DNA of 64,000 bases from Alphaproteobacteria bacterium. Its GTDB lineage: Bacteria > Pseudomonadota > Alphaproteobacteria > MPNO01 > UBA830. A model generated the notes under the pieces. That model saw nothing but the letters and a program-made list of their open reading frames with translations. It was not told where the DNA came from and did not search any database. Where the stretch lies: contig OZ251539.1 of NCBI GenBank assembly GCA_965243135.1, forward strand, positions 2,689,812 through 2,753,811, given 5' to 3'. How positions within the stretch are numbered: position 1 is the first letter of the stretch; each line of letters starts with the position of its first letter. Made by a program: the position numbers and the translations under genes. Of this stretch, positions 39,794-44,534 are shown in pieces.

Positions 39794-40954
39794 ATGAAGC
39801 GCGGCGACGGGCGAATTCTGACCACCCATGTCGGCAGCCTGCCGAGACCGGGGCGGCTGATCGAAACGATGATCGCGGAGGATCGGGGCGTCGCCATCGA
39901 TCGCGAGGCTCGCGACGCCGAGCTGAGGGCGGCGGTCGACGAGGTCGTCGCTCGCCAAGTCTCGACGGGGATAGACATCGTCGACGACGGCGAATTCTCG
40001 AAACGGGGTTTTTCCGTTTACGCCAACGAACGGCTGGCGGGCTACGAAATTCGGCCGAAGCGGAGGGGCATCCCGTGGGCCGGCTCGCGCGAGGCGCTGG
40101 CGTTTCCGGAGTTCTACGAGGCCGCGCTGCCTCGCGGTTCGGCGCCGCGAGCGGAGGAGGCGGTCTGCACGGGTCCGGTTTCGTACAAGGGGCAGGCCCA
40201 GCTTGCGCGGGACATTGCGAACCTGCGGGCGGCCGTCGACGCTCACGGGGCGGAAGAAGCGTTCGTTCCCGCGATCTCGCCGGTCGACGTCGCGGGCAAC
40301 CAGAAGAACGAGCATTACGCGACATCGGAAGACTTTCTTTACGCGGTCGCCGACGCCATGAGGGAAGAATACCGAGCCATCGTGGATGCGGGGTTTGTCC
40401 TGCAGATCGACGATCCGCATCTGGTAACCCACTACGTCAAGACTCCGGGCCTGGAACTGACCGATTACCGCAAATGGGCGGAAGCGCAGGTGGAAGCGAT
40501 AAACTATTCCCTCGACGGCATTCCCGAAGAGCGGGTTCGCTATCATACCTGCTACGGAATCAACATGGGGCCGAGGGTTCACGAGGTGGAACTCGGCTGG
40601 GTCCTGGATATCGTGCTCCGGGTCAGGGCCGGAAGCTATTCGTTCGAAGCGGCCAATCCGCGCCACGAACACGAATGGCGGCTGTGGGAGAACGCGCGCT
40701 TGCCGGACGGCAAGGCGCTGATTCCCGGAGTGATCACCCATTCGTCGGTGCTCGTCGAACATCCGGAACTCGTGGCCGAGCGCATCCGGCGCTTTGCCGG
40801 GCTGGTCGGCCGGGACAACGTGATCGCGGGCGGCGATTGCGGGTTCGGGACCCAGGCCAGCGCCGAGCCGGAGATCGATCCCGCCATCGTCTGGGCGAAA
40901 CTGGAGGCTCTGGCCGAAGGAGCTCGCATCGCCACTTCCGATCTGTGGCCGTAG
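39794..40954 (+). CDS. Cobalamin-independent methionine synthase (MetE C-terminal / UROD-like) family protein
   Basis: ATG at 39794 with AGGGAG RBS; HVGSLPRP N-terminus; HTCYG Zn-ligand region; CGFG near the C-terminus. Confidence 0.7.
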   Translation: MKRGDGRILTTHVGSLPRPGRLIETMIAEDRGVAIDREARDAELRAAVDEVVARQVSTGIDIVDDGEFSKRGFSVYANERLAGYEIRPKRRGIPWAGSREALAFPEFYEAALPRGSAPRAEEAVCTGPVSYKGQAQLARDIANLRAAVDAHGAEEAFVPAISPVDVAGNQKNEHYATSEDFLYAVADAMREEYRAIVDAGFVLQIDDPHLVTHYVKTPGLELTDYRKWAEAQVEAINYSLDGIPEERVRYHTCYGINMGPRVHEVELGWVLDIVLRVRAGSYSFEAANPRHEHEWRLWENARLPDGKALIPGVITHSSVLVEHPELVAERIRRFAGLVGRDNVIAGGDCGFGTQASAEPEIDPAIVWAKLEALAEGARIATSDLWP

Positions 40955-41103
40955 GCTGAACGGCGCCCGTGGGGAGATGGGCCATGCGCAACCAGGCCGC
41001 CGGCCGCGAATGAACTCTTTCGCGAATCGAAGACTTCGCGGCGGCGCTCGCCGTTCGAGAATTCCAGAACGCGACGCCGAGATCCGCCCCGTATCGCGTC
41101 GTT

Positions 41104-41323
41104 TTCAATGCGCGCCGTTCGAACCCGGAAAGGTTATGTCGCGCGCGGCGCAAGGTTCGGGTGCACCGCACTCAGAGTCGCATGCTGCCGGGCGGACATG
41201 CTTTCGTACTGACTTCAATGCGCGCCGTTCGAACCCGGAAAGGTTATGTCGCGCGCGGCGCAAGGTTCGGGTGCACCGCACTCAGAGTCGCATGCTGCCG
41301 GGCGGACATGCTTTCGTACTGAC
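41104..41323 (+). repeat. Perfect tandem direct repeat, 110 bp x 2
   Basis: 41104-41213 is identical to 41214-41323. Each unit carries GGAAAGG followed by ATG and a 26-codon ORF ending in TGA at the unit boundary. Confidence 0.9.
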
Positions 41324-41535
41324 GGTCGGCCGTCCGCACGGCCCTCGCGGACTTGTCGGCGGACGGAGTGCCGGTCGCCGAGCGGACGGCAAAGAATCGG
41401 CGCGGCGCGAACGCTTCTCGCTTCGGCGGCGACGGTCTTTTCCATGTCGTGATATCGAGCGAATCGTCGGCAGCGATTCTTCCGGCGGGTCTCGGGTAAG
41501 AATCCCAACTCCGCGGCCGAGCGTTTTCGCGGGTC

Positions 41536-42545
41536 CGCCCGCTTCAGCGGCGCTTGTCGAAAAACGCGAAAAGTTCCTCGGAGGTCCGACTGACGGCGAC
41601 GTGGGCCGTCGCTTCCTGAAACCGTTCGGGGTCGACGATGCCGTCGAGCATGGATTTCAAGCGTTCTCCCGCTTCGTCGCCGAACCGTTCGGCCGCAAGC
41701 CTGGCCATGAGTTCGCGGTTCAAAGCCATGGACGCCTCGGCCCTTGCGTCGGACGCCTCGGCTCTTGCGTCGAACGCCTCGGCCCTTTCCACGGCCGCGT
41801 CGGCTCTTGCGTCGGCCGCAAGCGCCCTTTCCACGGCCGCATCGTAATGTTGAGCGAATCCGGTCATCGATCCTTCAAGTGCAGTCTCTGGCAAGAAGTT
41901 CCACGGCCCCAAAATCGCCCGCTTCAGCGGCGCTTGTCGAAAAACGCGAAAAGTTCATCGGAGGTCAGACTGTCGGCGACATGCGCCGTCGCTTCCTGAA
42001 ATCGTTCGGGGTCGACGATGCCGTCGAGCATGGATTTCAAGCGTTCTCCCGCTTCGGCGCCGAACCTTTCGGCCGCAAGCTTGGCCACGAGTTCGCGGCT
42101 CAAAGCCACGGCCGCGTCGGCCCTCGCGTCGGACGCAAGCGCCCTTTCCACGGCCGCATCGTAATGTTGAGCGAATCCGGTCATCGATCCTTCAAGTGCA
42201 GTCTCTGGCAAGAAGTTCCACGGCCCCAAAATCGCCCGCTTCAGCGGCGCTTGTCGAAAAACGCGAAAAGTTCATCGGAGGTCAGACTGTCGGCGACATG
42301 CGCCGTCGCTTCCTGAAATCGTTCGGGGTCGACGATGCCGTCGAGCACGGATTTCAAGCGTTCTCCCGCTTCGGTGCCGAACCTTTCGGCCGCTAGCTTG
42401 GCCACGAGTTCGCGGTTCAAAGCCATGGACGCCTCGGCCCTCGCGTCGGACGCCTCGGCCCTCGCGTCGGACGCAAGTGCCCTTTCCACGGCCGCATCGT
42501 AATGTTGAGCGAATCCGGTCATCAGTATCGATCCTTCAAGTGCAG
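41536..42545. repeat. Three tandem ~310-380 bp repeat units, each encoding (on the minus strand) a DUF4351-like C-terminal segment, with an internal 21-bp microrepeat (DARAEAS) of variable copy number
   Basis: Units start near 41536, 41917 and 42224 (CCGCCCGCTTCAGCGGCGCTTGTCGAAAAACGCGAAAAGTTC...). The third unit is the 3' end of the ankyrin-Rpn gene. Confidence 0.85.
41544..42229 (-). other. Two orphan, out-of-frame copies of the C-terminal DUF4351-like segment (silent cassettes or duplication remnants)
   Basis: ORFs 41924-42229 and 41544-41912 translate to ...ETALEGSMTGFAQHYDAAVERALA...ERLKSMLDGIVDPERFQEATAHVA..ELFAFFDKRR, closely matching the C-terminus of the upstream gene but lacking ATG/RBS. 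Confidence 0.6.
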
Positions 42546-43740
42546 TCTCAGGGAACCATTCTGACCCGAGCGCCGTCATTGTCAACAGAAGATGGCGCAA
42601 CGGTTCGTCCACCGGCAGAAGCCTGTCAAGCTCCTCGCAGGCGCGCAACGTGTCGGCGGGGTCGCCTTGATGCAGCCGGAAATAAGCCGCCGCGGGATTG
42701 TCTTGGTACGCGGAATAGTCCATCCGTTGGACGTCGTGCACCACATACCGCGCCGGCGTTCTGTAGGGCTCGAGGAAGGCATGCTTCGGCGGAGCTATCA
42801 GCCTTTCCGCGTCGTCGGCTGCATTCCAGGCGTCGGCTCCCGTGTGGACGACGACCGGAACGGTGAACGGAACCCGGTCGTCGGCATCCAGGAGATCCTT
42901 GTGGTTCCGTCGGATGGTTCTTGTGAGTTCGATCCGGTAGGACGCCATCCGTTCCGCCATAGCGCGGTCGACAGCGGATTGGAACTCGACGATGAAGGAA
43001 AGCGGCTCTGAGTCCTGCGGTTCGAGGACCAAGATCATATCGCTGCGGAGGGCACGGCTGAGCGAGTGGGACACGAGTTCCCCGTCGATGCGTCGAATGG
43101 CCGCGTCTTCCGGCACCAGATCGGCCGGCAGGACAGTCCGCAGCAGGCCCCGCGCCATTACGGGATACCCGAAAACGAACCGGGCTATCGCGTCGTGCGG
43201 ATAACGTCCCGGCCTGCCCAGCATCCGCAGCGGGGTCCGGTCTCGCGGGTCCTTGAGAGCAGGGTTCCCGCCGCATCCGACCAAAGCGACGAACGCGGCG
43301 TAGTTCTCGTTGCGGGCGGCGTAGTGAAGCGGCGAGAACCCCCGATTGTCCGCGGCGTCGAGACCGGCGCCCGCCGCGGCCAGAGCCTCGATGGCGGCCG
43401 CATTCCCGTCGCGGGCAGCGTAGTGAAGCGCCGTTCGCCCGTTCCGGTCCCCGGCGTCGAGGCCGGCGCCCGCCGCGGCCAGAGCCTCGATGGCGGCCGC
43501 GTTCCCGTAGCGAGCGGCGTAGTGAAGCGCCGTTCGCCCGTTCCGGTCCCCGGCGTCGAGGCCGGCGCCCGCCGCGGCCAAGGAAGCGATGTGCGCCGCG
43601 CCCTTTTTCGGGACCCTGGCGGCGTAATGGAGAAGGGTCCGGCCCTTTCGGTCTTTCGGGTTGTTGTGCCGACGGAACAATTCGACGATGAATTCTGGGG
43701 ACCCCGTCCTGACGGCGGCGGCGAGCTGTCGTTTCTTCAT
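42241..43740 (-). CDS. Ankyrin-repeat protein fused to an Rpn-family (YhgA-like, PD-(D/E)XK) recombination-promoting nuclease with C-terminal DUF4351
   Basis: ATG at 43740 with GGGA RBS. Four ankyrin repeats (GRTALHYAAR.GNAAAIEALAAAGAGLDA); nuclease core ...FIVEFQSAVDRAMAERMASY...; C-terminal DUF4351-like helix bundle. Confidence 0.6.
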   Translation of the reverse strand: MKKRQLAAAVRTGSPEFIVELFRRHNNPKDRKGRTLLHYAARVPKKGAAHIASLAAAGAGLDAGDRNGRTALHYAARYGNAAAIEALAAAGAGLDAGDRNGRTALHYAARDGNAAAIEALAAAGAGLDAADNRGFSPLHYAARNENYAAFVALVGCGGNPALKDPRDRTPLRMLGRPGRYPHDAIARFVFGYPVMARGLLRTVLPADLVPEDAAIRRIDGELVSHSLSRALRSDMILVLEPQDSEPLSFIVEFQSAVDRAMAERMASYRIELTRTIRRNHKDLLDADDRVPFTVPVVVHTGADAWNAADDAERLIAPPKHAFLEPYRTPARYVVHDVQRMDYSAYQDNPAAAYFRLHQGDPADTLRACEELDRLLPVDEPLRHLLLTMTALGSEWFPETALEGSILMTGFAQHYDAAVERALASDARAEASDARAEASMALNRELVAKLAAERFGTEAGERLKSVLDGIVDPERFQEATAHVADSLTSDELFAFFDKRR

Positions 43741-44243
43741 TCTTCCGATCCCTGCTTGCGACTGTCGTGCGCTCAATGTTTCCGAACTCCGTTTCCGCCC
43801 CTGAGAAGCGGACCGCGGACCGCCGCCGAGGCGCGGCCCGCAGGCTTCGTCGCAGCCGAACGCCGGACATCGTCCGTCCGGCAAGGCTGCGGCTGCGTTC
43901 GCCTTAATGCCATGAAACGGCGGAACCGTCAAGGGGGAAATTCGCCGACGAAGCATCGAGGGTTCGGCGGCGCCGGAAGACGCGTTCCGGCATTCCCGGC
44001 GGTTCCGACGACGACGGATTCTTTCGAAGCGCGCTGGCGTCCCGCGAAAATCCCGCGTTCCCGCCGTTCGGGTCGTCTCCGCTCGCCCTTCGGAGACGCT
44101 TGCCTGGACGCCGCGCAGCCGGCCTGAACCGGAAAGATCGTCCGGCGCCCTGACGCCGCGACCGCGTTCCGCAGGCTTGACAGCCGTTTCCAGGGGGCGT
44201 AAACGTCGGGCCGACGAGGGCCCAATTTTTCGAGATCCGCAAG

Positions 44244-44534
44244 ATGTCCAGACGCTGCTCGATGACGGGAAAAGGCGTGATGACCGGCAACAATGTCAGT
44301 CACGCGCACAACAAGACGCGCCGGCGCTTTCTGCCCAACCTCCAGAACACGTCGCTCCTGTCCGATGCGCTCGGCCGCGTGGTCAGGCTCAAGCTTTCCG
44401 TGCGCGCCATTCGCGCGATCGAGCACAAGGGGGGACTCGACGCCTATCTTCTGGCGACGCCCGACAGGCGGCTGCCGGAGGAGGCTCGCGCTCTGAAGCG
44501 CAAGATAAGGAAGGCGTCGGCAGTCGCCGGCTGA
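44244..44534 (+). CDS. rpmB: 50S ribosomal protein L28
   Basis: [34 protein letters not shown]... is a canonical L28. Confidence 0.9.

Follow-up and report, generated by a model that had tools for sequence, protein, structure and literature searches.

The 64,000-nt stretch of alphaproteobacterial DNA analyzed in this study (contig OZ251539.1 of assembly GCA_965243135.1, positions 2,689,812 to 2,753,811; hereafter, the window) carries on its minus strand a gene for a predicted ankyrin-fused Rpn/YhgA-type PD-(D/E)XK nuclease. The last ~104 codons of this gene recur as two tandem copies immediately downstream, and both copies are intact open reading frames (ORFs). We consider it fairly likely that this is an Rpn-type toxin/antitoxin gene whose antitoxin-like module was tandemly duplicated into an array of free-standing genes of the rpnSs type, with diversification by slippage of heptad units. 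Within this reading, and with the same degree of confidence, the tail of the nuclease would correspond to the RpnS module by position and organization. The locus is a multi-copy version of the known layout of Rpn toxin, RpnS antitoxin, and rpnSs and not a new kind of system; it departs from the 2023 description of such systems by having several copies in an array, a repeat of seven instead of four residues, and fused ankyrin repeats. The locus probably has a role in defence.

The main gene was placed at 42241..43740 (−) and encodes an RpnL-like protein of 499 amino acids (aa), composed of ankyrin repeats, the nuclease domain, and a C-terminal helical domain. The full ORF spans 42241..43956 (−). 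Database annotation and homologues start at 43740, which gives 499 aa; the MKKRQL start at this position is common to eight of the 14 aligned homologues, and the remaining full-length ones reach further upstream. The two downstream ORFs are located on the minus strand at 42229..41924 and 41912..41544. Tail and copy lengths are counted here from a conserved methionine, which is Met407 in the main protein. From this residue, the main-gene tail (42241..42522, −), a candidate intragenic RpnS-like product, comprises 93 aa with three heptad units. Free-standing copy 2 (41924..42184, −) comprises 86 aa from its ATG with two units and is open from a TTG at 42229, and free-standing copy 3 (41544..41867, −) comprises 107 aa from its ATG with five units and is open from a TTG at 41912. 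ORF translation further revealed the decayed head of another unit (..FLPET..RFARYHD..) at 41371..41513 (−), which lacks both the methionine and the remaining domain.

The three proteins are present in sequence databases. The 499-aa protein is an exact match to P0150 (NCBI/ENA collection), copy 2 is identical to P0116, and copy 3 to P0105 (NCBI/ENA-derived collection). All three are encoded on one 6.1-Mb contig, which also carries at least two further paralogues of the ankyrin-Rpn gene along with three other free-standing tail genes, whose products have 114, 72, and 80 aa (P0005, P0008, P0113, P0123, and P0125).

The repeated unit begins ~11 codons upstream of the conserved methionine (..FPETALEGS..MTGFAQHYD..) and extends to the stop codon plus AGCGGGCG. 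Tandem Repeats Finder detected 2.1 copies of a 317-nt period at 41789-42453, with 97% matches, and, in addition, 21-nt microrepeats at 41730-41844 and 42427-42483. In a three-way DNA alignment, the main tail and copy 2 were nearly identical (98% for the unit in the repeat finder); copy 3 was more diverged, its repeat tract being 63 nt longer than that of copy 2 and 42 nt longer than that of the main tail. Identical 5' blocks (PETALEGS-MTGFAQHYDAAVERALA) and 3' blocks (ELFAFFDKRR-TGA-AGCGGGCG) border the variable middle. The comparison shows the free copies to be products of tandem duplication of a 317-380-nt unit, consisting of a linker and a whole predicted domain, and of subsequent slippage of a 21-nt unit that corresponds to one heptad of the predicted long first helix.

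An earlier reading of the locus from the letters alone (the sequence-only reading) had described an ankyrin-Rpn nuclease followed by duplicates of its C-terminal segment that vary in a 21-nt microrepeat. These points were borne out: ORFs, the repeat finder, and the DNA alignment agree on true duplicates, the three-way alignment centers the variation on the microrepeat, and the domain content was confirmed by Pfam Ank and PF04754 matches and the alignment with RpnE. The frame offset between successive units is +2 (equivalent to −1) and not +1 as had been read; start-to-start distances are 338 and 317 nt, and the spacers of 56 nt contain no ORF. That the copies lie out of frame, as this reading emphasized, is irrelevant, as they keep the conserved methionine, are intact in two strains, and exist as separate database proteins. 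The proposed PDDEXK_7 and DUF4351 labels had to be abandoned. Pfam gave no match to PDDEXK_7 for the tail, nor for 16 members of the family at E<=10, the actual match being PF04754; the search for DUF4351 is described below.

The assignment of the main gene to the ankyrin-fused Rpn/YhgA-type nucleases is based on profile matches and motif conservation. The ankyrin-repeat domain occupies aa 1-175 (43216..43740, −; Pfam Ank_2, E 4.5e-25; predicted local distance difference test (pLDDT) score >90 in the AlphaFold2 (AF2) model), and the nuclease domain aa 181-392 (42565..43200, −). PF04754 (Transposase_31, YhgA-like, Rpn family) matched aa 181-344 with 44.9 bits (E 1.3e-11; cut-off 21). The nuclease core shares 31% identity over 124 aa with RpnE from E. 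coli (E 1e-9), and its motifs PHDA, SD, and E-F-Q-S align with PHDA, SD, and E-H-Q-S of RpnE. Their counterparts in RpnA are D11, D63, E82, and Q84, mutation of which inactivates RpnA (PMC5350276). In 15 homologues, S233/D234, E252, and S255 were invariant, and Q254 was replaced by arginine in two (P0007 and P0008). Approximately 20 database clusters have the ankyrin plus Rpn architecture, at 45-72% identity. The fusion suggests that the ankyrin domain supplies an added protein-recognition input to an Rpn nuclease.

In the family alignment, the conserved nuclease part is followed by the internal methionine, which is nearly invariant across 15 homologues, a variable tract of alanine and charged residues, and a conserved C-terminal core. 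The variable tract is absent in the shortest homologue and reaches several tens of residues in the longest. The full-length AF2 model shows a confident ankyrin domain (aa 1-175), strands of an alpha/beta nuclease core (aa 214-299), a low-confidence linker (aa 390-428), a long helix just after Met407 (aa 410-454), and three short helices (aa 456-496). When the tail was modeled alone (pLDDT 86.6), a helix spanning residues 3-48 and three short helices were predicted as in the full-length model. According to these models, the duplicated unit is a linker plus one complete structural domain. The repeat tract starts ~13-17 residues past the conserved methionine, within the predicted helix 3-48, and the copies differ chiefly by 21-nt units, that is, by 7 aa or one heptad. 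A profile search yielded 49 homologue clusters, nearly all of them short stand-alone proteins. In the subfamily with the MTGFA motif, the tail length from the conserved methionine followed 72+7n in 23 of 24 clusters.

The array recurs at related loci. L001 combines a main tail of 100 aa with free copies of 79, 86, and 93 aa, L002 a tail of 114 aa with copies of 86 and 93 aa, and L088 a tail of 86 aa with copies of 93 and 107 aa. In L089, from a subfamily just ~45% identical, a tail of 132 aa is accompanied by copies of 90 and 97 aa; L091 has a tail of 121 aa, one free copy of 107 aa, and a frameshifted third unit. No free copy was found in L004 (main tail 93 aa) and L005 (135 aa), where only a decayed remnant is left, or in L003 (93 aa). 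Thirteen free copies at seven loci retain an intact ORF with the conserved methionine and the conserved C-terminal core, and the arrangement is kept across two subfamilies that are only ~30-45% identical. Decayed or frameshifted terminal units, as in the window, are also present in L004, L005, L089, and L091, and most arrays end in this way. The region past the last copy in the window aligns with its counterpart in L001 at 67% identity over 146 nt (E 2e-10), and both represent a decayed unit head. Among intact copies, the proportion of synonymous differences (pS) was 0.02-0.10 within a locus and 0.25-0.5 between loci. The shared decayed terminal unit together with the low within-locus pS suggests an old array that has been homogenized by gene conversion or repeated re-duplication.

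Strain-level variation was evident from L087, an independent metagenome scaffold with 99.6% identity to the window over a 1-kb flank and 94% over the array. Its free copies have 93 and 100 aa, compared to 86 and 107 aa in the window; one 21-nt unit was gained and one lost, so the locus varies between strains as the sequence-only reading had anticipated. Copy 1 of L087 combines sites typical of the main tail of the window with sites typical of copy 2. The free copies of the two strains differ by ~7 synonymous and ~9 non-synonymous changes, compared to a neutral expectation of ~1:3.3, and the pooled within-locus ratio of non-synonymous to synonymous proportions (pN/pS) was ~0.4-0.5. These ratios suggest constraint on the free copies at the protein level, and the intactness of all free copies in arrays with decaying terminal units is a further sign of constraint. 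In the six arrays with a known main tail, no two members were equal in length and no free copy equaled the main gene. This pattern is of marginal significance (P ~0.05 with shuffled observed lengths, ~0.04 with the database-wide length distribution), and assemblers could collapse identical tandem copies.

The anatomy of the locus closely resembles that of the RpnL/RpnS systems, which were described as gene-within-gene toxin-antitoxin and antiphage systems (Zhong et al., 2023, PNAS, PMC10400941; commentary PMC10400984). In these systems, an internal start directs separate translation of the variable Rpn C-terminal domain, and the product, RpnS, is the antitoxin of the full-length nuclease RpnL (PMC10400941). 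RpnA-S forms a dimeric bundle of three helices, the first of which is long (PDB 7TH0; PMC10400941). Short repeats of 4 aa begin 8-20 residues past the internal methionine of RpnS, their number is strain-variable, and RpnL is blocked only by RpnS of equal repeat number (PMC10400941). A second, free-standing copy, rpnSs, may follow the gene, as ypaA does after rpnE and rpnCSs after rpnC, each derived from its own upstream gene, and the ypaA product, YpaA/RpnESs, is a detected protein in E. coli (PMC10400941). Such copies can be lost by deletion or by fusion with the rpn N-terminal part, and match DUF4351 only "in some species" (PMC10400941). In E. coli K-12, we found that ypaA begins 12 nt past the rpnE stop codon, four codons ahead of the internal methionine (KERLM), and that its repeat number deviates from that of the rpnE tail by a single KLEG unit of 4 aa. 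This arrangement is a small-scale version of the one in the window. RefSeq labels ypaA (NC_000913.3 2357816-2358001, L092) a pseudogene, though Zhong et al. detected its protein.

Features that the window locus has in common with RpnL/RpnS are a nuclease of the YhgA/Rpn PD-(D/E)XK type whose C-terminal helical tail is variable, an internal methionine that is conserved and preceded by a Shine-Dalgarno-like block, and a repeat tract of strain-variable number early in a predicted long first helix. With rpnE-ypaA, the locus shares a same-strand duplicate of the tail that lies immediately downstream, originates from its own upstream gene, and has another repeat number. The differences are as follows: two to three intact free copies and a decayed one are present per array instead of a single copy, the tail measures 72-121 aa from the methionine (up to 135 aa in a related subfamily) compared to ~47-60 aa in RpnS, its predicted fold is a long helix plus three short helices instead of a three-helix bundle, and the nuclease has an N-terminal ankyrin domain, unlike RpnL/RpnS as described.

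Polymorphic toxin loci, such as those of contact-dependent inhibition (CDI; cdiA-CT/cdiI) and Rhs, carry orphan C-terminal toxin/immunity cassettes downstream, and the sequence-only reading had likened the layout of the locus to these. Tandem partial copies of a 3' end and a conserved homology block able to support recombination are indeed common to both. Yet what is repeated in the window is a module C-terminal to the nuclease and not the toxic domain; the copies carry their own start codon, no immunity genes lie in the 56-nt spacers, and the variation is in repeat number and not in unrelated domain types. The analogy therefore does not hold. The module is predicted to be purely helical and would correspond to the one that acts in antitoxicity or oligomerization in Rpn systems; its right comparator is rpnE-ypaA (rpnSs) and not orphan toxin cassettes. 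Another parallel is offered by the HsdS subunits of EcoR124I and EcoR124II (cited in PMC10400941), in which specificity depends on how many 4-aa TAEL repeats the helical spacer contains. The parallel lies in a short in-frame repeat of an alpha-helix, the number of which would act as a length ruler and alter interaction specificity, but HsdS is the DNA-recognition subunit of a type I restriction enzyme, without free-standing duplicates and without toxin-antitoxin logic.

Sequence signals for separate expression of the tail were found in all main genes examined, which have a purine-rich Shine-Dalgarno-like block (GAAGGA, AAAGGAGA, or GGAGGG) 8-9 nt before the conserved ATG. In the window, this is a GAAGGA at 42532..42537 (−), 9 nt upstream of the internal ATG. 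At the sequence level, the main gene thus has a predicted ribosome-binding site and, in frame, a predicted internal start codon where the variable C-terminal domain begins. The block is found at the same spacing in the free copies of L001 and L002. A sigma-70-like match, TTGACA-16-CAGAAT (42558..42585, −), lies inside the main gene and precedes the internal ATG by ~35 nt. This sole promoter match in 3.3 kb, where 0.3 would be expected, recurs at the equivalent place in L001; L002 showed no match, and the hexamers are not conserved in L003 and L004. As it sits in coding sequence, the match is weak evidence. Between the units, no promoter-like site, terminator, or stable hairpin was detected, and the junctions fold worse than shuffled sequences. 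Accordingly, the small genes would share a transcript with the main-gene tail.

From these features and the precedent of RpnL/RpnS, we propose the following mechanism as the most likely one. The main gene would give rise to the full-length nuclease and to a 93-aa short form translated from Met407. Dimerization of this form with the nuclease tail, mediated by helix 1, would keep the enzyme inactive. The two downstream genes, co-transcribed, would yield the 86- and 107-aa paralogues with the helix shortened by one heptad and extended by two, respectively, and these paralogues may modulate or buffer the toxin-antitoxin interaction. Because identical flanks are shared, the paralogues could also swap sequence with the main tail by gene conversion or unequal crossing-over and thereby reset the repeat number of toxin and antitoxin.

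Several observations weigh against this interpretation. No similarity of the tail to RpnA-S or DUF4351 was detectable in either sequence or fold, and none to the RpnS proteins of E. coli in sequence. DUF4351 (PF14261) gave no match at E<=1 with the three proteins of the window and none at E<=10 with 16 family members, so that the DUF4351-like label of the sequence-only reading is without hidden Markov model support. The equivalence to RpnS consequently rests on position, organization, and repeat behavior. The small tail proteins had no match in PADLOC and NCBIfam, and PDB sequence searches with the tail and the family profile returned chance matches only (E>=0.35). The repeat unit is 7 aa (21 nt) and not 4 aa (12 nt) as in RpnL/RpnS. 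The NCBIfam model of the Rpn family, TIGR01784, scored 24 bits (E 2.9e-5), below its cut-off of 52.1, and the nuclease therefore belongs to a divergent Rpn branch. In the free copies of the window and L087, the distance from GAAGGA to the ATG is reduced to 3 nt by a 6-nt deletion; this ATG may therefore be translated weakly, and the start of these copies is uncertain. In the window, it is either the ATG, which gives the 86 and 107 aa of the database proteins, or the upstream TTG, which gives 101 and 122 aa. Selection estimates were derived from few substitutions and are confounded by gene conversion with a selected main gene. Finally, as no free copy matches the main tail and RpnL is blocked only by an RpnS of the same repeat number, simple redundancy of the antitoxin is unlikely. 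Insertion of a heptad, unlike that of 4 aa, keeps the register of a coiled coil, and mismatched lengths might still pair here.

One alternative takes the downstream copies as silent donor cassettes without expression, from which homologous recombination would transfer sequence into the main gene and so change the repeat number and specificity of the nuclease tail. Identical blocks on both sides of a variable middle, the poor spacing between GAAGGA and ATG in the free copies of the window, the mosaic copy 1 of L087, and the fusions of the rpn N-terminal part with rpnSs reported by Zhong et al. (PMC10400941) agree with it, as does the low within-locus pS (0.02-0.10 vs. 0.25-0.5) in arrays that nevertheless share a decayed terminal unit between the window and L001, a combination that fits concerted evolution. 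However, recombination of direct tandem repeats leads mostly to deletions, which cannot be undone, and no invertible or site-specific element was found; every free copy at all loci has kept its start methionine, most with a well-spaced Shine-Dalgarno block, pN/pS below 1 suggests constraint on the protein, and YpaA/RpnESs is a detected protein (PMC10400941). We therefore judge silent cassettes improbable, and the roles of donor and gene are not mutually exclusive. Of the cassette swapping put forward in the sequence-only reading, the part that stands is recombination between copies, which is plausible and has documented counterparts in the E. coli fusions (PMC10400941); the part that does not is the view of the copies as mere cassettes, since each looks like a gene of its own. 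It also appears unlikely to us that the copies are non-functional by-products, i.e., transient, decaying duplications of the 3' end caused by the Rpn nuclease or by replication slippage. In favor of this view, almost every array ends in a decayed or frameshifted unit, L003 is without an extra copy and L004 with a remnant only, ypaA is a RefSeq pseudogene, and the locus is duplicated at four scales (21, 99, 110, and 317 nt). Moreover, the way the repeat tract is built keeps its indels in frame, and an intact tract is therefore no evidence of selection. Decay alone would hardly leave 13 free copies at seven loci intact with the conserved methionine and C-terminal core, non-synonymous changes below the neutral prediction, an arrangement that persists in two subfamilies ~30-45% identical, and array members that are never equal in length (P ~0.04-0.05).

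Two further explanations were rejected. A T-run (GCG TTT TTC) is present near the end of each unit, at 42256-42262 and 41939-41945 (−). Programmed −1 ribosomal frameshifting at this run would fuse successive units into a nuclease with two or three tail domains, and in the window each following unit does occupy the −1 frame; this frame is already open 29 codons ahead of the methionine, at a point shortly before the T-run. At 65% G+C, though, long open frames would be expected from chance alone, and no stimulatory structure follows the run, the junction folding worse than shuffled sequences (z = +1.6). L001 has an offset of +1, and its frame stays open for only 23 codons and closes within the 112-nt spacer; offset and spacer vary between loci. 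As neither frame offset nor openness is conserved across loci, we hold a frameshift fusion to be very improbable. There is next to no chance that a single repeat was mis-assembled into three, the outcome by which the sequence-only reading would have fallen. Tandem repeats are error-prone in assemblies and a perfect 110-nt duplication lies nearby, but the copies differ by substitutions and 21-nt units, and the multi-copy layout is repeated in the independent assemblies L087, L001, L002, L088, L089, and L091, with contig names that suggest long-read assemblers for L001, L002, and L088.

The reading of the array as an Rpn toxin/antitoxin gene with free-standing antitoxin-like copies can be extended by a more tentative idea, which we think rather doubtful: the arrays could be maintained as a "length ladder" of heptad variants that neutralize Rpn nucleases of foreign length and/or allow toxin and antitoxin to be re-paired. 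If this were true, a cell could neutralize Rpn nucleases from paralogues, incoming elements, or phage-borne copies, and quick re-pairing of lengths by gene conversion would constitute a built-in diversity generator for toxin-antitoxin defence.

The main interest of the locus lies in its being a tractable system for the meaning of repeat number and for the function of free-standing RpnS copies. Zhong et al. left open what drives the variation in RpnS repeat number and which role the free-standing rpnSs copies play. The clade described here is a natural experiment on both questions, with several free copies per locus that differ in heptad number and never match the adjacent nuclease, and with length changes between near-identical strains in addition. 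If the small proteins are expressed, binding and inhibition of the nuclease as a function of length would show whether repeat number is a specificity code, and whether the spare copies are buffers, decoys, or a recombination reservoir. Small ORFs of this kind are easily overlooked or called pseudogenes, as ypaA is in RefSeq, and merit treatment as genes; in the source genome of the window, both were already called as proteins.

With respect to its surroundings, the window gene sits between a MetE-like gene and rpmB-cobT. The closest cobT neighbors belong to Rhodospirillaceae-like metagenome-assembled genomes. None of 80 related cobT-rpmB loci from other alphaproteobacteria carried an insertion at this site, and the gene is therefore accessory. 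Homologous loci adjoin AbiE, PIN, Fic, integrase, IS66, and IS605 genes. Relatives were found neither in GTDB genome contigs scanned with the full-length family alignment nor in JGI metagenome contigs and IMG/VR viral contigs scanned with the tail alignment, and these scans gave no evidence of a phage-borne copy. The family has so far been met only in ENA assemblies and one NCBI genome.

The ankyrin domain (aa 8-173) matched the PADLOC candidate defence model PDC-M72A (E 6e-19). It contains a 99-nt tandem repeat (43348-43580; 2.4 copies, 95% matches in Tandem Repeats Finder), which encodes two extra 33-aa ankyrin repeats. These form a 66-aa insertion compared to all 14 aligned homologues, and their absence from the latter indicates a recent internal expansion of the domain. 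Just downstream of the array, a 110-nt unit is perfectly duplicated in tandem (41104-41323; 2.0 copies, 100% identity), and in the near-identical strain L087 it is present in a single copy. This duplication could be a very recent event or an assembly issue; the unit had no Rfam match and no further copy within the window, and an Rfam scan of 40900-44300 returned no RNA family. Tandem duplication at this locus was thus observed at four scales (21, 99, 110, and 317 nt). The G+C content of the array (41600-42600) is 0.61-0.63, slightly below that of the flanks (0.65-0.70).

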